Virus record (IMG/VR): IMGVR_UViG_3300011335_000775
Coordinates: 32,001-96,000 of that record
Strand: one strand, 5' to 3'
Source of the DNA: a virus
Length of the DNA: 64,000 bases
Made by a program: the position numbers and the translations under genes
Shown: positions 5,016-57,881 of the stretch, piece after piece
Numbering within the stretch: position 1 is the first letter of the stretch
How the letters are laid out: every line of letters begins with the position of its first letter
The notes under the pieces: model-generated
The model's database searches: none
What the model was told of the DNA's origin: nothing
The model's input: the letters and a program-made list of their open reading frames with translations, nothing else

Positions 5016-5503
5016 AAGCCAGTCAGAAACTGGCTGAATTGGCCGCACAAGAATTACCAAAACTCTTGGATAAAGTAATCATAGAGGATGGAAAAAAGTA
5101 CCGTGTGTTTGGCAAATATACCATACATCCTGCAACCGACGGATTTGAAGTTTTTCAAAGAGATGACAATATTGGTACATTTTCCAATACCAAATCTGCA
5201 TTGGCTTGGTGCATAGCCGACAATCAAAATCGTCTTAATCTAGCTAGACAAATACATGAACTTGATCAATCCGTAGTAAGAATGCGTAATGACATATACA
5301 TACGCCGCGGTATTGCTGATCGTGCGTCGGGTCAAAACTGGGAAAATTTAATTAACAAAACAAATGCTAGGCAAGAGCAGAACTTGATCCTAGAAAAAGA
5401 ACTAGCGAAATGTATAAATTTGGCTAAATACTGGCAACTACGAGGAAACTCAGATGAAACTAAACGAACTGGCCGTAACACGCCCCACCCGACAAATCGC
5501 TAA
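5012..5503 (+). CDS. Hypothetical protein
   Basis: ATGA overlap with the previous gene. Confidence 0.7.
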   Translation: MKASQKLAELAAQELPKLLDKVIIEDGKKYRVFGKYTIHPATDGFEVFQRDDNIGTFSNTKSALAWCIADNQNRLNLARQIHELDQSVVRMRNDIYIRRGIADRASGQNWENLINKTNARQEQNLILEKELAKCINLAKYWQLRGNSDETKRTGRNTPHPTNR

Positions 5504-20975: not shown

Positions 20976-21004
20976 TTGACCAGAATTGGCAGATCGGGTA
21001 TAAT
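20976..21004 (+). promoter_or_regulatory. Early sigma70 promoter repeat 1
   Basis: TTGACC-17-TATAAT. Confidence 0.9.
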
Positions 21005-21201: not shown

Positions 21202-21230
21202 TTGACCGGAATTGCAAAATCGGTTATAAT
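21202..21230 (+). promoter_or_regulatory. Early sigma70 promoter repeat 2
   Basis: TTGACC-17-TATAAT-ACATACATCGCAACAAGGAG. Confidence 0.9.
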
Positions 21231-21255: not shown

Positions 21256-21891
21256 ATGTTCGCTACCCAAACTCGTAAAACTGTGCAACTGAATTCAGTA
21301 CAACAAACTCAGATAGAAGCACTGAGTTCTGTGTTAGGTAAACTGAGCAACAGCGATGGCAACTTTGCTTCCAGTTTGATCCAGAACTTTTATCGTTATG
21401 GTAGCTTGTCTCCCAAACAGCTGACCTGGGTTGATACTTTGACCCAACGTGCCACACAGCCCGCACCGGTTGCGCAGATTCAAGTGAACTTTCAAAAGAT
21501 CCAAGATCTGTTTGATTTGGCTGCTAAGAAACTGCGCCGTGTCAAAGTCAAATTACAAACCGCACAAGGACAGCCAGTGGCGTTTGTCCGTGCAGGTGCT
21601 AACAGCAAATATGCGGGTCAGATCCTGATCACTGACGGTGGCCCATTTGGCAACAACAAGTTCTTTGGACGTGTGGATGTTACTGGTGAGTTCTTTGCTA
21701 CTCGCAGTGCCACACAAGAAGTGTGCGACCTGGTTAAAGAGTTTGCAGATGACCCATCTGCCACCGCAGGACGTTATGGACGCCTCACTGGTGGTTGCAG
21801 TTTTTGCAATCACGGGCTGAAAGATAACCGTTCTGTGCAAGTTGGATACGGTCCGGTATGCGCTCGCAACTTTGGTCTAGTATGGGGTTGA
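21256..21891 (+). CDS. Early protein with C-terminal DUF6011-like Zn finger
   Basis: CSFCNHGLKDNRSVQVGYGPVCA. Confidence 0.7.
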   Translation: MFATQTRKTVQLNSVQQTQIEALSSVLGKLSNSDGNFASSLIQNFYRYGSLSPKQLTWVDTLTQRATQPAPVAQIQVNFQKIQDLFDLAAKKLRRVKVKLQTAQGQPVAFVRAGANSKYAGQILITDGGPFGNNKFFGRVDVTGEFFATRSATQEVCDLVKEFADDPSATAGRYGRLTGGCSFCNHGLKDNRSVQVGYGPVCARNFGLVWG

Positions 21892-21916
21892 CCAGAATTG
21901 GCAGATCGGTTATAAT
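21888..21916 (+). promoter_or_regulatory. Early sigma70 promoter repeat 3
   Basis: TTGACC-17-TATAAT; the -35 contains the upstream TGA stop. Confidence 0.9.
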
Positions 21917-22171: not shown

Positions 22172-22200
22172 TTGACCAGAATTGGCAGATCGGTTATAAT
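22172..22200 (+). promoter_or_regulatory. Early sigma70 promoter repeat 4
   Basis: TTGACCAGAATTGGCAGATCGGTTATAAT, identical to repeat 3. Confidence 0.9.
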
Positions 22201-26466: not shown

Positions 26467-27594
26467 GCAGATATAGAACCGTGACCGCAGAAGTTGAAGT
26501 TGAACTATCGGACTTTGACACCGATGACCTTATCGAAGAGTTAGAGAGTCGTGGCGCAGACTATAACACCAATGGTGTGAATGCTGATGAGATGCGACTG
26601 TTGCTGGAGTCAATTTGGCACAAGCGTCGACTGGGCAATAACGACTACCAAGCAGAACTGGACCGGTTGATATACGGTGTGCTTGGGCATGTAGTGTGAT
26701 CAATCTAAACTTCAGCATTGCTAATCCTTGGCGCCGAGATCTTTGGAACATCCTGTGGAACATCAGCAGGTCGATTACCAAACACAAAGCCGTGGAGTTC
26801 AATGGATATCGCACTGGGCATATGATTGATATAGAATTTGAGTGGAGATTCAATGGCGATCATGCAGGCGCCAGAGTCATGCTGGTGATGCTGGGATATG
26901 GTGTGGAACTGCATTTCTACGATATGCGGCATTGGGATTATGATAGAAACACCTGGGACAAAGTTCTATGAACGCATTGATTGAACGCATGATCAGTGAA
27001 GCCGGACTCAAATACTCTCCTGAACAAGCAGAAGCAGTGGAACGACTGGTGCGGATAACAGCTACTTTCTGTATTGATCAATGCGGCGGCAAAGGTGTAT
27101 GTGTAGGATCCACCCTGGTCAAGAACAAGATTCTCACAGCATTTGAAATGAATCGACCCCCGGAAAGAACTTTATAGTGAGTCGAGATCTATGGACAGAA
27201 ATGGTACAGGAACTGTCACCAAGAATTGACAAAAATGCAGCAGAACTTCTATATCACCGTGCCGCAGCAGCCCGGGGGCATGGTCAAAAACTCGAAGTGC
27301 CCAACGGTATGGGCAAGTGGGTAGACTTGACAAAATTGTTTGAACAGTATACAATGATACAGATTTTAAAAGGAAAAAATGATGGCAACAGCAAAAACAG
27401 TAAACAAACTCAGTGACAAACTGGTCAAAGTGAATGAGAACTTCACCATCAACATGTACGACAATGGCTTCATGGTTGAAGTAGGTGGACGCAACAAAAA
27501 GAGCGATTATGTCAGTGCCAAAATCATATGCAGTACCGTGGATGAGGTGTTAAGTCTTGTACGTGAAGCATGTGAAATGGATCGAGATAGCTAA
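26463..27594 (+). CDS. Run of five short coupled hypothetical genes (26463-26699, 26696-26971, 26968-27177, 27177-27416, 27382-27594)
   Basis: Overlapping stop/start junctions. Confidence 0.6.
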
Positions 27595-30945: not shown

Positions 30946-32144
30946 CCAAAGAAACATATACCTCTTGCAGCTTTTGTGGCAAGAACAAAGACTCAGTTAA
31001 AAAACTCATAGTTGGTGAATACGCAGGTATTTGTAACGAATGTGTGGAATTTTGTCGAGATCTACTTACAGATGAACCAGTTGTAACTGTCCCTGACCAT
31101 CCATCAGACAAGATGGATCCTATTGCTTTAAAGAACTATTTGGATCAATACGTGATTGGGCAACATGCTGCCAAAATCATGTTGGCCGTGGCCATTGTAA
31201 ATCATTACAAACGCATCAGCAAAACCACAGCGGAGCCCGAACTAGACAAGGCCAATATCTTGATGTTAGGACCCACTGGGTCAGGTAAAACATTGTTGGC
31301 CAAATCAGTGGCACGTTATCTTGACGTTCCGTTTGCCATTGCAGATGCAACATCAATCACAGAAGCAGGCTATGTGGGTGATGATGTGGAAAGCCTTATC
31401 AGCAGACTATACGCAGCATCGGGTAATGATGTGGCCAAAACACAGCAAGGTATTGTGTTTGTGGATGAAATTGACAAGATCTCTCGCAAAGGAGAATCAA
31501 CTTCGATCACACGTGACGTATCCGGTGAAGGTGTACAGCAGGCCTTGTTAAAGATGGTCGAAGGTACAGTATGTCGTGTGAGTGCCGGCGGCGGACGTAA
31601 ACATCCAGGCGGTGAAATGATTGAAATTGATACCAAGAATATCTTGTTCATTGCCGGTGGCGCCTTTGTGGGACTAGACAGTATTGTAAAGAACCGTGTG
31701 CAAGGCACCAGCATTGGATTCAATGCCAGGGTAGAAGCCAACATGGACACAGATCTGGGCATGACCACTCCGGATGATCTAGTAAAGTTTGGAATGATTC
31801 CTGAGTTTGTGGGACGTTTTCCTAACTGGGTCAGCTTGAAAGAACTTTCAAAAGCAGACTTGATCCGTATCCTTACCGAAGTCAAGAACAACTACATTGA
31901 GCAGTATCATTGGCTGTTTAAAGAAGATGGAGTGGAGTTGACATTTACAGCGCCTGCACTGGATCTTATTGCTGAACACACACTGGCCAACAAAACTGGT
32001 GCTCGTGGGCTGCATTCAGAACTGGAACGCACATTGATTCCGCACATGTTTAATCTACGTCGCTATGCCAGCACAGGTATCAAATGTTTGGAAATCGATC
32101 CTGCACAAGTAAACAAACCAACTGCACTAACAGGTACAGACTGA
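30942..32144 (+). CDS. clpX: ClpX AAA+ unfoldase
   Basis: C4 Zn finger, [34 protein letters not shown] loop. Confidence 0.95.
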
Positions 32145-45933: not shown

Positions 45934-46212
45934 ATGTTTACAGCAGACACCATGATCGACACCATTCAAAATGGTAAAAAACAATTCGTTAAGACTTTTG
46001 TCACCAACGAAACAATGGCCACTTCAATGAATCAATTTGTTGACATCCAAGCCGAATATACCAAGAAAGCTTTCAAAGCATCCACAGATGCAGCCACAGT
46101 GCTCATGCAAGAAGCTATCAAGGTAACTAAAGATGCTTCCAAATTTGACTACGTGAAGTTCGGCGAAGGCATCATGAAAGCCTATCAAACCACGCAGAAA
46201 AAGGGCGCCTAA
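45934..46212 (+). CDS. Phasin-like amphipathic helical protein
   Basis: 92 aa, all-helical, rich in A/T/K; resemblance only. Confidence 0.45.
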   Translation: MFTADTMIDTIQNGKKQFVKTFVTNETMATSMNQFVDIQAEYTKKAFKASTDAATVLMQEAIKVTKDASKFDYVKFGEGIMKAYQTTQKKGA

Positions 46213-46213
46213 T

Positions 46214-46414
46214 ATGAAAAGCCAAGCATCGCCTTGGCCGGGCGAAATACATCGGTCAGTATTGGATATATCCATTAATGATTTGTTAGATTGGATAAAG
46301 GATACCTTTACGCCATCATACCGAAAAGAAGTTGAGTCGTATCTAGCCGATTCTACAGATATATTTGATTTAGAACGCAGAATTCAAATTCTACAACGTA
46401 GAGGAATTGTGTAA
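46214..46414 (+). CDS. DUF3563-like protein
   Basis: ESYLADSTDIFDLERRIQIL. Confidence 0.6.
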   Translation: MKSQASPWPGEIHRSVLDISINDLLDWIKDTFTPSYRKEVESYLADSTDIFDLERRIQILQRRGIV

Positions 46415-46567
46415 TGACCGTATTTAAATCCTTTTATAATTTTTTAGGAAATTATGGACGCTGCTGTGTTGCTGTTCATTTGACTGCACTTGGAGATCAT
46501 GCAGGTGCTCAACGAATTATGATGGAAGATTTCCAGGGCTGGATCTAAAAAAGTCTCAAATTCCTGG

Positions 46568-46596
46568 TTGACCACTAATCCGGTTCGTGCTATAAT
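46568..46596 (+). promoter_or_regulatory. Early sigma70 promoter
   Basis: TTGACC-17-TATAAT. Confidence 0.85.
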
Positions 46597-46630
46597 TACA
46601 GCATAGACCGGATTTTTTACGGAGATTGTG

Positions 46631-46786
46631 ATGAGACCCATGAGTTTTGTGATTGAATTACCTCGACAGCGCCGTCGTGCTGTGGAACTGTACTCACGCG
46701 ACACACCATTCCGTCACCGTGTGGAGCAGAGCAAAACTCAATATCGTCGTCGTGCTAAACATGTGAAAAAAGGGGCTGAAGAATGA
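46631..46786 (+). CDS. 51-aa basic protein, ArfA-like (not in the ORF track)
   Basis: GGAG RBS; PFRHRVEQSKTQYRRRAKH. Confidence 0.5.
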   Translation: MRPMSFVIELPRQRRRAVELYSRDTPFRHRVEQSKTQYRRRAKHVKKGAEE

Positions 46787-48053
46787 ACGAACGAATTGAA
46801 AAACTTGCCGAACAGTGTCGAATTGAAACTTATGGCGTCAATGGCGAACTGTTGACATTTGGGTTTGACGAAGAAAAATTCGCCGAGTTGATTGTGCGAG
46901 AACTTTCTGCTGTTGCTAATCATTTTAGTGATGGACATGAAGTGAGACAATTTGACGATAGCAAAAGGTATCTTTATTTTGTTGATATCGGTCAAGTTAT
47001 TTTAGAACATTTCGGAGTTGAAGAATGAACGAACGAATCTTTGAACTGGCTAAACAGGCTGGCCTTATTCAATGGGACTCGCTTCCTTCAGGTGCTAGAA
47101 CACCCGATCACGAAAGTGTTGTCAAGGCACAAAAGTTCGCCGAGTTGATTGTGGCTGAATGTGCTGAGTCGTTGTGGACAGAAGAATGTTACAATAGTGA
47201 TTTGGCCTTAGAAGAATTTGAAAAGAATAGTAAGAAGATTCGAGAACATTTCGGAGTTGAAGAATGACCACTGAAATCACTACAGAAATGCTGGACCGTA
47301 CTATTGCATGGTGTGAGCAAAACGCATTTTGGGGCAAACCTTCTGCTGTGCCGCGTATGCTGGATTTCTACTTTGAAAAGACTCGAACCAGTGTGAAAGA
47401 AGATTGGCCCGAGACATTCACATTTCAGGATCTAGCCAAGGCCCTGGGCGAGTACCCGGTGCGGTATAGGATTTATTACAGTCAAGATAACCTCACTTTA
47501 CGACTGTTTGTATTCAGACCTCGCTGCACTTGGTCTGAAGAAAAAAAGATGTTAGACTTGGGCTTTGTTGTTGCTCAAGATGGTGATACAGAAAACATCC
47601 CAGACCAACCTGTGAAACAAGTGGTGGAAGAATGAACGAACGAATTAAAGAACTCAGAAAACAGGCAATAGAATTCGCAAATGCCACCGAACGTGATACT
47701 GACTATAGATGGGATGTAGCATGTGATACAAAGTTCGCCGAGTTGATTGTGAAAGAATGTGCCAATGTTGCTGCCGATCATGATGCATTAGACATTTACG
47801 AAGAGATTAGAGAACATTTTGGAGTTGAAGAATGAACGAACGAATCGAATCCCTACTACCTACCCCATTTAGAAAACAGGGGCAGCAGATTGAAGCAGAC
47901 GGTGAAGTAAATGTATTCTGCGATATGTATTGTAAAGAGCAGATGATTGAATTCGCCGAGTTGATTGTGAAAGAATGTGCTAAATTTTTATGGGACAGTA
48001 ATGACATTTTAGATGAGTATCGTATCAAAAAACATTTCGGAGTTGAAGAATGA
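46783..48053 (+). repeat. Tandem array of MNERI...FAELIV...HFGVEE paralogs (46783-47028, 47025-47267, 47632-47835, 47832-48053) with one unrelated gene (47264-47635)
   Basis: Four copies of TTCGCCGAGTTGATTGTG; six GAAGAATGA junctions. Confidence 0.9.
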
Positions 48054-48268
48054 AAAAAATTGAATTGGATGGTGAAATTGCAGACGGCATTGCCCTGGCA
48101 GTGCTCAAAGACCAACGTGCTTATCTCAAAAAAGAACTAGCACAATGGAAAAAGAATCCCCGGTCAGATACCAATCCCACTGGCTATTGGCTACATCCTG
48201 ACGATGTGGTAGGCCATGCTCAACTGATTACTGCCCTGGACACAATCATTGAATATTTTGGAGGTTAA
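48050..48268 (+). CDS. Hypothetical protein
   Basis: Coupled to the array. Confidence 0.65.
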   Translation: MKKIELDGEIADGIALAVLKDQRAYLKKELAQWKKNPRSDTNPTGYWLHPDDVVGHAQLITALDTIIEYFGG

Positions 48269-48269
48269 C

Positions 48270-48425
48270 ATGACCGCAGACACCCGTGAAATTGTTGAAA
48301 TTGAAATTGAACCTGAACTGTTGTATCAGATCATGCTGCTGGCACACGAACAAGATATCACACTGAATCAACTGATTGAACGTGTTCTACGTGAATACAT
48401 TGCAACACATACCAATCTAGTATGA
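48270..48425 (+). CDS. Ribbon-helix-helix (HicB-tail-like) DNA-binding protein
   Basis: GGAGG RBS; IEIEPELLYQIMLLAHEQDITLNQLIERVL. Confidence 0.6.
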   Translation: MTADTREIVEIEIEPELLYQIMLLAHEQDITLNQLIERVLREYIATHTNLV

Positions 48426-48640
48426 AATACCTACTGCTGGTATTGCTGCTAACAGGGTGTGGTCATTTTTCACCCAAGACATCACCACCCGTGGATGTGA
48501 GTCTTATACCCAATGACTGTGCCAATCAACAACGTATAGTTCGCTGGCTGGAAAGCCAATCACAAGGAGAATGGAATGAACATGTCGCGCAAATCAAAGG
48601 CCGTATCTGGAATCTGCGTTACACTTGCAATCCTGTGTAG
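48422..48640 (+). CDS. Lipoprotein
   Basis: Lipobox LTGC. Confidence 0.7.
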   Translation: MKYLLLVLLLTGCGHFSPKTSPPVDVSLIPNDCANQQRIVRWLESQSQGEWNEHVAQIKGRIWNLRYTCNPV

Positions 48641-48923
48641 TGGCTGTGCCACATCCAGGCCGCAAGCAATGAACTTTGTGGATTTGGACTATTTCCAAAT
48701 CAACTGCTCTCAAAGATATGAACAAATGGCTCTATTGCAGAGCATGCGTAGCACCCCGGATGATCGACTGTTTGCAAGAGCCAGCAATGCATTGCAACCC
48801 TGGCGAGCATATACCAATCCTGAACAATACAATAACAATGCTGCTCAGGGATATGGACGCAGTGACTGGGTGATCAACCAAAAACTTATTGAACTAAGAG
48901 ACAACTGTAGGAGCAATCCATGA
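48582..48923 (+). CDS. Lipoprotein
   Basis: Lipobox-like CSGC; related to the previous gene. Confidence 0.6.
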   Translation: MSRKSKAVSGICVTLAILCSGCATSRPQAMNFVDLDYFQINCSQRYEQMALLQSMRSTPDDRLFARASNALQPWRAYTNPEQYNNNAAQGYGRSDWVINQKLIELRDNCRSNP

Positions 48924-49480
48924 AATTGCTAATGTCCATACTAGCCCTGGTTGCTATCACAGCACAAGCTGATTGTGTGTTGCAAGATAAAACTGTAAGC
49001 CAAAGTTCAGCAGTGATTGCAGAACGCAGTCAGATAACTGCCACAGTGGTGCCTGATCCGCAAACAGGCAAACGTTGCTTGGTGACTTTTCGAGCACGAG
49101 TTGGTGCCACTTGGTACACAGCCATGGGTGAGCATGCATGGCCCGGTGATACCCCTAGAGATTCGGCCTGTGCTGTGGCCATGAAACGTGCAGAAGATTC
49201 AGTTCGAGAACAAGTGGCTGCAAGTCGAGTGATTTCAGAAAAGATTCTAGTATGTCGAGATGATCCTACCTTGGATTCTGTACGTCAGACCAATCCAGGC
49301 TCTGTGGCGGAATTGGCGCAGTTCAGACCACATCCGGACTATCCTCGAGAGTTCTGGCACAATGGTACTCGATGCCGTTGGTTTTTGGATTCAGGATTCA
49401 CAGGACGCGACATTCGAACTTGGCAAGGCATCATTTGCCAAATACATGATTCCAAGTGGGTAGTGATTGACAAGTTCTGA
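48920..49480 (+). CDS. Secreted Cys-containing protein
   Basis: Signal peptide ending AQA. Confidence 0.7.
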   Translation: MKLLMSILALVAITAQADCVLQDKTVSQSSAVIAERSQITATVVPDPQTGKRCLVTFRARVGATWYTAMGEHAWPGDTPRDSACAVAMKRAEDSVREQVAASRVISEKILVCRDDPTLDSVRQTNPGSVAELAQFRPHPDYPREFWHNGTRCRWFLDSGFTGRDIRTWQGIICQIHDSKWVVIDKF

Positions 49481-50235: not shown

Positions 50236-50805
50236 ATGGCAGAAATAGACACCAGCACTTGGTCCCATGCACAACACCTACAGGCCAATGGTATATTTGT
50301 GCTGATGGGGCCTATTGAAACAGACACAGTCAAGCCAGTGATTGAATGGATCTTGAATGAAAACTTTGTGATCAAACGTCGTCACAAAGAACTAATCTTG
50401 AGTATTTGCAGTGAAGGTGGTGATATGAGTGCAGCCTTTGCACTGATTGATGTAATGCGCAGTTCCACAGTGGCTATCAAAACAGTTGGGATTGGGCAAA
50501 TTGCATCAGCTGGATTGTTGATATTCTTGGCTGGCACACCCGGACGTAGAACCCTAACACCCAACACCAGTATTCTGAGTCATCAGTTCAGTTGGGGCAG
50601 TGATGGCAAAGTACATGAATTATTTGCCACCATACGTGAGTTTGAGCTCACACAACAACGCATGGTTCAACACTACAAAGATTGTACTGGTCTAGATGAT
50701 GATGTGATCAAGGCCAAATTGCTGCCGCCACATGATGTTTGGCTTGATGCCACTGAAGCGTTACAGTTGAATATTTGCGATTCAATATCGCAATTGCAAC
50801 GTTAA
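50236..50805 (+). CDS. ClpP-family protease (divergent)
   Basis: SEGGD, IASAG (Ser), SHQ (His), HDVWL (Asp). Confidence 0.8.
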   Translation: MAEIDTSTWSHAQHLQANGIFVLMGPIETDTVKPVIEWILNENFVIKRRHKELILSICSEGGDMSAAFALIDVMRSSTVAIKTVGIGQIASAGLLIFLAGTPGRRTLTPNTSILSHQFSWGSDGKVHELFATIREFELTQQRMVQHYKDCTGLDDDVIKAKLLPPHDVWLDATEALQLNICDSISQLQR

Positions 50806-53098: not shown

Positions 53099-53683
53099 AT
53101 GTCAAATCTAGTACCCATTGTTCTCGAACACACATCCAAAGGTGAACGCAGTTACGATATTTATAGTCGCTTGCTACGTGATCGCGTGGTCATGCTGGAC
53201 GGAGAAGTCAACGGGCATAGCTCAAGTCTAATCTGTGCGCAGTTATTGTTTTTGGAAGCAGACAATCCGGACAAAGACATCAGCTTGTATATCAATTCGC
53301 CGGGTGGAAGTGTAACAGCAGGGATGGCCATTTATGACACCATGCAGTTTATCAAACCCGATGTTGCAACCATTGTGATGGGCCAAGGTGCAAGCATGGG
53401 ATCGTTGTTAGCAGCAGCTGGAGCAGCAGGCAAACGATTTATTCTGCCCAATGCACGTCACATGATTCATCAACCGTTAGGTGGTGCGTCAGGGCAGGCC
53501 ACAGATGTAGAAATCCAAGCCCGTGAATTGTTACGTTGGAAAAAAGTTCTTACAGACATGTATGTCACACATACCGGCCAATCTTATGACAAGTTACGGG
53601 CTGATATGGAACGTGATAACTTTATGACTGCAGAAGAATCAGTCACATACGGACTAGCCGACAAAGTAATCACCAAACGTTAA
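53099..53683 (+). CDS. clpP: ClpP protease
   Basis: [35 protein letters not shown]. Confidence 0.96.
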
Positions 53684-57395: not shown

Positions 57396-57421
57396 AAAAA
57401 GCCCCTTCCGGGGCTTTTTTT
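57396..57421. terminator. Bidirectional terminator
   Basis: AAAAAGCCCC-TTCC-GGGGCTTTTT. Confidence 0.85.
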
Positions 57422-57881
57422 ATGCAGCGTCTACAAACTTTTTGCTTCTCTGAGTCATTGATATTTTCCTTTTGGTCTCCTCAGATTGGACCCTTCCTGG
57501 TTTTCCTTTCTTAGACATGCTCATTTTAAGTCTTGCCTCTTCAGACTGTTTACGACCCTTAAACCCAACCATGTTTTCTTTTATTTTTTGTCTATGGGAA
57601 ATAGATAGTTTTTTACCAATCGGATTTGGTGGTAATCCACCACCTTCGGCAATGTTTAAACCAATGTTGCGTGTTGGACGCAACGATTTTTCTACTTGTT
57701 TACAATAGAGTTTATCACCATAAAGAAAAACATCTACTGTTCTGTTGTCCAGAAAGTTATGTTTTCTTCTGTGTTCTTTAAGTCTGCGAGTTAGATCTTT
57801 AGTAATACCAACATAGCCTTGTGTTTCTATGTTGGTTTCTTGATCACTGTGGATCCAGTAGATTAGATATTCCTGATACAT
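57420..57881 (-). mobile_element. GIY-YIG homing endonuclease with NUMOD3 repeats
   Basis: LIYWI...GYVGIT...RRLKEH; GRKQSEEARLKMS. Confidence 0.75.

Follow-up and report, generated by a model that had tools for sequence, protein, structure and literature searches.

We analyzed a 64,000-nucleotide stretch of viral DNA (positions 32,001 to 96,000 of IMG/VR record IMGVR_UViG_3300011335_000775; hereafter the window) and characterized an array of small overlapping genes at window positions 46631 to 48053. Four of these genes, m1 to m4, are predicted to encode members of an unnamed family of acidic proteins about 75 residues long. In each gene, MNERI comes at the start, KFAELIV.EC in the middle and HFGVEE directly before the stop codon, and we refer to these constant parts as the N-block, the middle block and the C-block and to the two variable modules on either side of the middle block as V1 and V2. 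Our preferred reading, to which we give a probability of roughly 75%, is that the array is a promoter-led operon at a hyperplastic site and that its blocks, which are conserved as DNA, serve as crossover points for the exchange of gene halves and of whole genes. The window is part of a 113.8-kb record that is estimated to be 33% complete, so the source, an uncultured freshwater phage, is large.

A tandem array of constant and variable blocks

The four family genes lie on the plus strand: m1 (46783 to 47028, 81 residues; N-block 46783-46796, middle block 46879-46896, C-block 47008-47028), m2 (47025 to 47267, 80 residues; 47025-47038, 47136-47153 and 47247-47267), m3 (47632 to 47835, 67 residues; 47632-47645, 47734-47751 and 47815-47835) and m4 (47832 to 48053, 73 residues; 47832-47845, 47952-47969 and 48033-48053). 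An initial annotation of the locus had described consecutive genes that meet at GAAGAATGA, mostly within a longer shared sequence, and this description held up when counted. The window contains six copies of GAAGAATGA, every one at a consecutive gene junction (ending at 46786, 47028, 47267, 47635, 47835 and 48053), while shuffled windows contained 0.90 on average and none of 100 reached six. Four of the six junctions lie within CATTTYGGAGTTGAAGAATGA, which ends the four family genes. These genes likewise begin with ATGAACGAACGAAT and share the 18-mer TTCGCCGAGTTGATTGTG, which is present in exactly four copies (46879, 47136, 47734 and 47952; 0.05 expected); a window scan that tolerated three mismatches returned no further copy.

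The segments between the blocks are dissimilar, as had been claimed. The four proteins are 36 to 43% identical, and this identity is concentrated in the MNERI..L..Q, FAELIV.E and HFGVEE blocks. Of 16 degenerate block codons, 14 are the same in all four paralogs (Ile5, ATT or ATC, and one Phe, TTT, are the exceptions), compared with 2.8 predicted from the window's own codon usage, and a count of 14 was reached in none of 2,000,000 codon-usage simulations. All four genes carry the three blocks in order and match the family profile at E = 1e-28 to 1e-34; they are the only family copies in the 113.8-kb record. Between m2 and m3 sits a gene of 123 residues (47264 to 47635, plus strand), here called the cargo gene. 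Its start codon is the ATG of the m2 C-block, and it ends with GTGGAAGAATGA, overlapping the m3 start. In agreement with the initial annotation, it is unrelated to the family (the family profile gave no match) and yet is flanked on both sides by the same junction.

Block DNA is conserved throughout a large family

A search of 1.84 billion proteins with a profile built from the four genes identified 4,907 family members, each representing a 50%-identity cluster (E ≤ 0.001). In a second search, 7,941 of 8,000 scored candidates passed the same threshold, and none of the 120 matches listed carried a Pfam domain or a name beyond "hypothetical." We defined the family by the presence of the MNERI, FAELIV and HFGVEE blocks in this order in a protein of about 60 to 95 residues. 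An estimated 2,300 or so stored stretches in IMG/VR carry the family motifs, and 80 viral loci that we fetched held 272 family matches, with 2 to 10 copies, often overlapping by ATGA, in 63 of the 80. Family proteins are acidic, with a median isoelectric point of 4.8 and a value below 5.5 in 87% of 327 genes. Searches of GenBank phages by blastn (46000 to 49000), tblastn (m2) and megablast (the 36-nucleotide junction) gave no match, so the family was not found in cultured phages by these routes. When all ten genes were scanned against Pfam and PHROGs, nothing usable was returned for the family, and we found no description of it in the published full-text literature, where HFGVEE and FAELIV were absent among the matches listed and "mneri" occurred only inside other words.

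A profile of 323 family genes detected no further members among all open reading frames (ORFs) of the window. ORF 26968-27177, which the initial annotation had put forward as a possible distant member, was rejected (E = 0.66, first 20 residues only), as was 48050-48268 (no match at E ≤ 10). Long antisense frames run across family genes in the window (46738-46995, minus strand) and at two other loci (loci are cited by our numbers: L029, 3334-3666, and L109, 3457-3915, both minus strand). They cluster between loci because they are the conserved blocks translated backwards (..NQLGELF..), and they are not genes.

The initial annotation had treated the nucleotide identity of the blocks as a feature of this array. 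The identity itself stood, but it is a property of the whole family rather than peculiar to the array. ATGAACGAACGAATT is present in 142 of 174 MNERI genes, the middle block TTCGCCGAGTTGATTGTN (that is, TTCGCCGAGTTGATTGT followed by any base) in 136 of 197 FAELIV genes, and CATTTYGGAGTTGAAGAATGA in 128 of 137 genes ending in HFGVEE and a stop codon. Loci had been retrieved with degenerate back-translations of peptides that excluded the middle block; the codons were therefore not selected by the search method. Among 216 distinct genes from largely unrelated phage contigs, with long ORFs of the same loci as background, single codons dominated at Arg4 (CGA, 90% versus 13%), Ala34 (GCC, 86% versus 22%), Leu36 (TTG, 90% versus 26%) and Gly69 (GGA, 96% versus 22%). 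Glu35 in the middle block is encoded by GAG in 92% of genes (background, 26%), whereas the other conserved Glu sites use GAA in at least 90%. Five consecutive middle-block codons (TTC, GCC, GAG, TTG and ATT) occur at 79 to 96% compared with 22 to 49% in the background, and the Val codon that closes the block is unconstrained (GTG, 42%; GTT, 36%; GTC, 13%; GTA, 8%).

The loci themselves are mostly unrelated, since a 250-nucleotide stretch of at least 90% identity is found in just 184 locus pairs, or about 1% of those among 194 loci. Over all between-locus pairs, codons for the same residue differed at a frequency of 0.14 in the N-block, 0.25 in the middle block and 0.07 in the C-block, compared with 0.40 in V modules that are still 60 to 80% identical as protein. 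Silent divergence in the blocks is thus abnormally low, as expected from the contrast between constant and variable segments that the initial annotation had drawn.

Identity between relatives begins and ends at the blocks

The initial annotation had cast the blocks as recombination handles for half-genes and whole genes, a view that predicts chimeras, and exact reciprocal chimeras of the window's own genes were indeed found. Database protein P0153 combines V1 of m2 with V2 of m1, P0220 is its reciprocal (V1 of m1 with V2 of m2), P0157 joins V1 of m1 to V2 of m3, and in six further database proteins V1 of m1 is combined with a different second half each. At the DNA level, a gene of locus L085 resembles m1 over the N-block, V1 (89%) and the middle block, with no relation on either side, while the similarity of m3 to genes of L112 and L040 extends from its middle block to its C-block (88% at the nucleotide and 90% at the amino acid level) and is absent before that.

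We then compared the two halves, on either side of the middle block, in 447 distinct genes. V1 identity and V2 identity were uncorrelated. Among 1,054 pairs with V1 identity of at least 85%, V2 identity was below 35% in 69% (background, 73%) and at least 70% in only 3%. At a 70% threshold, the genes fell into 285 V1 types and 305 V2 types in 416 combinations; the m1-type V1 occurred in 53 genes with 47 V2 types, and the m2-type V2 in 59 genes with 42 V1 types. Because the two halves are fully unlinked, exchange must be pervasive rather than rare. Whole-gene near-duplicates between loci amounted to 7 pairs of at least 85% identity among 327 genes, too few for the lifetime of a given V1-V2 combination to be measured.

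Comparison of contigs that are 90 to 99% identical to each other also revealed insertions and deletions bounded by the blocks. Where L164 has a single C-block, L156 has two, which enclose an additional 203-bp family gene (24-nucleotide overlap), and one hybrid gene in L190 corresponds in L193 to two middle blocks with 275 bp between them (16-nucleotide overlap). Three more indels end in C-block-like repeats or in repeats of the ribosome site and start. The overlaps at these recent events are 14 to 24 nucleotides of plain homology at varying positions, as homologous exchange predicts. They fit poorly with a dedicated enzyme, such as a GIY-YIG homing-endonuclease-like protein or another site-specific nuclease or recombinase, that would recognize the blocks and drive cassette exchange. 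A gene for a GIY-YIG-like protein of 168 residues (phrog_5123, E = 5.5e-5) is the commonest non-family neighbor, and in L006 such a gene ends in ...FGVK right before a family gene; the window, too, encodes a GIY-YIG-like protein (57420 to 57881, minus strand; PF01541, 23.9 bits, above the cut-off). However, the neighboring gene is present in just 30 of 143 loci, and the window's GIY-YIG-like gene, which is of a related kind, lies about 9 kb from the array rather than adjoining it, and we consider an enzyme of this kind very unlikely.

Within module types, V modules evolve as real coding sequence under purifying selection: the pooled ratio of nonsynonymous to synonymous divergence (dN/dS) was 0.16 for both V1 and V2 (75 non-independent pairs each), with dS of 0.80 for V1 and 0.53 for V2. 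Constant flanks around hypervariable segments are also the usual look of targets of diversity-generating retroelements, and targeted hypermutation of this type could in principle rewrite the variable parts while sparing the blocks. We give this explanation almost no credence, because V modules vary in length and cannot be aligned between types, silent changes dominate within a type, and numerous genes carry an unaltered copy of one and the same module. A search of the 113.8-kb record, estimated to be 33% complete, gave no RVT_1 match.

Individual chimeras may be artefacts of short-read assembly that joined family genes at shared blocks, and the junction of a C-block and an N-block, with about 26 to 32 identical bases, is close to small k-mer sizes. 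We therefore considered sequencing runs that contain the window or parts of it, which among the matches listed numbered 20 runs from 7 studies labeled as riverine, lake water or aquatic metagenomes; uncovered parts in runs X13 and X14 were left uninterpreted. In the four runs examined, the array was reproduced in exact pieces ending at the blocks, depth in block-holding bins was 5 to 25 times that of the flanks, and many contigs continued into unlike sequence at block edges. The raised depth and the divergence of contigs indicate that the blocks are common to many sequences in these communities. As the Logan contigs (k = 31) break at every block, the runs neither confirm nor refute the gene order of the window or rearrangements within populations. 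Such contigs nonetheless require real reads across a joint, and those from a study distinct from the probable source contain the whole of m1 exactly (X3 record 17 and X9 record 26) as well as, in an independent run (X9 record 27), an m1-like V1 that leads past the middle block into a different V2. Identity at the middle block amounts to only some 20 bases, below the usual final k, and the lack of a preferred partner for the m1-type V1, like the purifying selection on the V modules, fits ill with misassembly, which we regard as a highly improbable source of the pattern as a whole.

Unrelated genes are joined at the C-block

The C-block places GGAG 7 nucleotides before ATGA and so combines a ribosome site with an overlapping stop and start. 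Among 201 distinct family genes ending in GAAGAATGA, 179 open an ORF of at least 40 codons at that ATG; the gene that follows is a family gene in 55 cases, another ORF in 124 and a shorter frame in 22. The whole-gene capture suggested by the initial annotation is borne out by the cargo gene, which recurs elsewhere behind the same joint. We found 47 relatives in viral contigs (49 to 81% identical); with the window counted, 21 of 48 copies come immediately after a family gene, and the majority end in GTTGAAGAATGA, the last twelve bases of the family C-block. In L179 (2495-2971), a complete family member forms an in-frame fusion with the cargo, and the cargo gene of L188 (2477-2791), like that of L189, ends in EEHFGIESIE; by their sequences, these cases represent gene fusion and tail capture at the joint. 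The cargo gene itself has no family, Pfam or PHROG match. Array-bearing loci elsewhere contain the remaining non-family genes as well: the 51-residue first gene is seen in 11 loci, the 72-residue gene in 7 and the ribbon-helix-helix gene in 29.

We also observed that the cargo family is modular in its own right. The first 31 residues are missing in 5 of 22 aligned copies, residues 20 to 27 exist in two unrelated versions (NAFWGKPS-like and KLADAKAA-like), and the acidic tail is variable.

The array occupies a variable site behind a promoter-like sequence

Four viral contigs (L195 to L198) contain the flanking genes in the same order, with 50 to 67% protein identity, and lack the array at this site. 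L195 has a homolog of the first gene without the GAAGAATGA tail, directly followed by the lipoprotein gene that starts at 48422 in the window. L196 has a stretch of about 500 nucleotides with a different gene of 147 residues (5051-5494), L198 has a stretch of about 500 nucleotides that matches that of L196 and differs from the array, and L197 has a gap of similar size between the same flanks. In the whole records of the four syntenic fragments, the family was found once, in one record. Since its syntenic relatives lack it, the array belongs to the variable content of a hyperplastic site, which is a hotspot for gene replacement; the array order is thus not fixed across relatives, in line with the shuffling that the initial annotation had envisaged. 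At the array site of L195, two copies of a near-identical promoter-like sequence, TTGACCAGAATTAGCCRATCTGCTATAAT, flank one small membrane-protein-like gene (about 5040-5075 and 5308-5340).

Upstream of the array lies a sigma-70-type promoter-like site (46568 to 46596, plus strand) with TTGACC, a 17-nucleotide spacer and TATAAT, a TG before the -10 hexamer and 11 of 12 consensus positions. It overlaps a predicted 14-bp hairpin (46577 to 46620, plus strand; centroid fold, -18.8 kcal/mol; z-score, -2.5) that holds the -10 hexamer in its loop and is followed by six T, as in a terminator. The window contains nine TTGAC-N17-TATAAT sites including this one, all on the plus strand, compared with 0.17 expected. 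This consensus promoter suggests that the array may be expressed early.

Evidence for and against exchange at the blocks

Several points weigh against the preferred reading. All data are metagenome assemblies and predictions, and we infer the effect of the blocks on recombination from sequence comparison. No close relative with the same array was found, turnover of the window's own array was not seen directly, and no contig in the four runs examined bridged the window's gene order. The sample of 447 genes is enriched for the window's modules, as the profile came from its four genes, and consists in part of cluster representatives, which strips whole-gene near-duplicates; an unclustered set restricted to the loci showed the same unlinking, but in 26 pairs of at least 85% V1 identity. 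Middle-block differences were about equal within loci (1.34) and between loci (1.43), so local gene conversion inside an array is not what homogenizes the blocks, and a force beyond it has to be supposed. Finally, the translation signals in the N- and C-blocks and the protein core could alone fix part of the sequence, and in predicted mRNA folds 63% of the N-block and 52% of the C-block are unpaired, compared with 43% of the variable parts.

This last point is the basis of an alternative in which the blocks are constant solely as protein core and translation signals, recombination being an incidental by-product without evolutionary weight. The spacing of GGAG and ATGA, the 179 of 201 joints that open an ORF, the low pairing of the N- and C-blocks and the near invariance of the block residues in 128 protein sequences are all in keeping with it. 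Such constraints account for a large part of the N- and C-block sequence. They leave unexplained, however, which codons the middle block uses, including the GAG there for the Glu that is GAA elsewhere, and the complete unlinking of the halves is at odds with an incidental role. We therefore regard this alternative as unlikely.

Conserved RNA pairing between blocks was considered and found unsupported, as 2 to 19% of block bases pair with another block. A search of 46000 to 48800 against Rfam gave no match at E ≤ 1.

Predicted structure of m2

The fold predicted for m2 from an alignment of 128 sequences had a mean predicted local distance difference test score (pLDDT) of 90.3 and a predicted template modeling score of 0.70. 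The model consists of a helix (residues 3-12), a beta-hairpin (17-19 and 25-27), a second helix (29-49), a short helix and a last helix (59-76). The first helix starts with the N-block and the second with the middle block, and the last helix ends in the C-block; V1 forms the hairpin and V2 the turn between the two long helices. This order of elements suggests a constant base with a variable tip. No solved fold was found for m2: the best Foldseek match in the PDB had E = 0.66, and the best VIA-align hits (Z = 4.8 over 49 residues; root-mean-square deviation, 2.8) were generic helical hairpins. Matches in BFVD were limited to uncharacterized proteins of uncultured phages and those in the ESM Atlas to viral hypothetical clusters. 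The cargo model was poor (pLDDT, 67.2), with a weak best Foldseek match (E = 0.024) and no function assigned.

A model for exchange and its relation to known systems

In the mechanism that we propose, ordinary homologous recombination or template switching would cross at the blocks, because family members share 14 to 30 identical bases at the same in-frame positions. Crossovers would occur both between tandem copies and between co-infecting phages. Those in the middle block would swap half-genes, and those in the C- and N-blocks would exchange, add or delete whole genes. A gene joined behind a C-block should remain translationally coupled, because the C-block supplies a ready-made ribosome site and stop/start overlap, and unrelated small genes have acquired the same C-block tail. 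Recombination is presumed to be driven by homology without a dedicated enzyme; the record carries a RecA/UvsX-like gene. Silent sites may be kept by heteroduplex repair together with the loss of members that leave the exchange pool and, in the N- and C-blocks, also by constraints on translation signals. The proteins would be produced early and bind targets of the host or of rival phages, with a variable tip mounted on a constant base.

A bolder version of this mechanism, possible although we hold it only tentatively, is a combinatorial library at the population level, in which many lineages share a pool of V1 and V2 modules and assemble them into two-surface binders, with the DNA of the joints, including its silent sites, held constant by selection to remain recombinable or by a recognizing machinery. 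If true, viruses would have their own equivalent of receptor repertoires assembled from segments, directed against host defenses or rival phages, and synonymous sites would clearly be under selection for evolvability.

One close parallel is with PeSL (promoter-early stem-loop) cassettes of T4-type phages, repeated short DNA motifs in hyperplastic regions at which recombination inserts, deletes and replaces genes (Arbiol et al. 2010, PMC2839356). Both systems have recombining repeats amid small nonessential genes, and the array, too, is headed by a strong sigma-70-like promoter and stem-loop (46568-46620), recognized from its sequence. PeSLs are intergenic and regulatory, whereas the exchange repeats described here are coding blocks and the promoter and hairpin occur once in the array. 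The array joints furthermore keep the reading frame, swap half-genes as well and are shared by contigs that are otherwise dissimilar. Comeau et al. reportedly also worked on the PeSL cassettes of T4-type phages in 2014.

In integrons, promoter-led arrays of small promoterless genes are exchanged by an integrase at folded attC sites between the genes. The array resembles them in being promoter-led and composed of small exchangeable genes, but its genes overlap by ATGA without an intergenic site, its joints are coding and also lie mid-gene, and they pair little with one another in predicted folds. The internal-protein locus of T-even phages is said, in work by Repoila et al. from 1994, to carry a conserved capsid-targeting leader on polymorphic genes. 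It shares with the array tandem polymorphic small genes and a short conserved 5' coding block proposed for gene swapping, and it differs in having one block with a known targeting function and no middle or 3' block. Retroelement targets differ in that variation in the array is not limited to substitutions at fixed positions in a region of constant length. In the gp38 tail-fiber adhesins of T-even phages, glycine-rich motifs separate hypervariable segments (Trojet et al. 2011, PMC3157838). Conserved motifs likewise form the core and part interchangeable variable segments within a gene, a likeness of mechanism and not of homology: the role of gp38, a virion adhesin present in single copy, is known, whereas the family is multicopy, tandem, translationally coupled and about 75 residues long, and no adhesin-type Pfam or PHROG family matched it at E ≤ 1.

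The array differs from PeSL cassettes and gp38 in that its joints are coding, in frame, three per gene and conserved at silent sites, in a family of thousands across dissimilar phages. Modular exchange of phage genes at short motifs has so far been argued from a few model loci, and here it falls inside reading frames. The signature is unusually clean, with silent sites frozen in three blocks, turnover between them and unlinked halves, so the old question of whether linker homologies are kept because they promote exchange becomes directly testable. The family is also one of the larger uncharacterized small-protein families of freshwater phages and likely an arms-race repertoire.

Other features of the locus

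The operon begins with a gene for a 51-residue, Arg-rich non-family protein (46631 to 46786, plus strand; weak DUF7230 match, E = 0.015) that ends in GAAGAATGA. Behind m4, a 72-residue non-family gene (48050 to 48268, plus strand) starts at the ATG of the m4 C-block, and it is followed by a 51-residue ribbon-helix-helix-like gene (48270 to 48425, plus strand) with weak HicB/CopG/Arc-like matches (Pfam, E = 0.0013; phrog_582, E = 3e-4). The latter is the last gene that is missing from the site in L195 to L198. Downstream, the overlapping small genes 48422-48640, 48576-48923 and 48920-49480 are kept in the four syntenic relatives; a lipoprotein-like signal, MKYLLLVLLLTGC, opens at least the first of these genes.

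The other promoter-like sites lie at 20976-21004, 21888-21916 and 22172-22200 and at 21202, 22564, 28865, 55589 and 58849. Three promoter-like sites are the same 29-mer, TTGACCAGAATTGGCAGATCGGTTATAAT, within 1.3 kb and before small genes; this promoter cassette could itself be a PeSL-like recombination repeat. The window also encodes a DnaB-like helicase, a ribonucleotide reductase, a DNA ligase, PstS and ClpP-like proteases. Two genes resembling ClpP or head maturation proteases lie 2.3 kb apart (50236-50805 and 53099-53683; phrog_94, E = 2.6e-20 and 9.1e-51, respectively).

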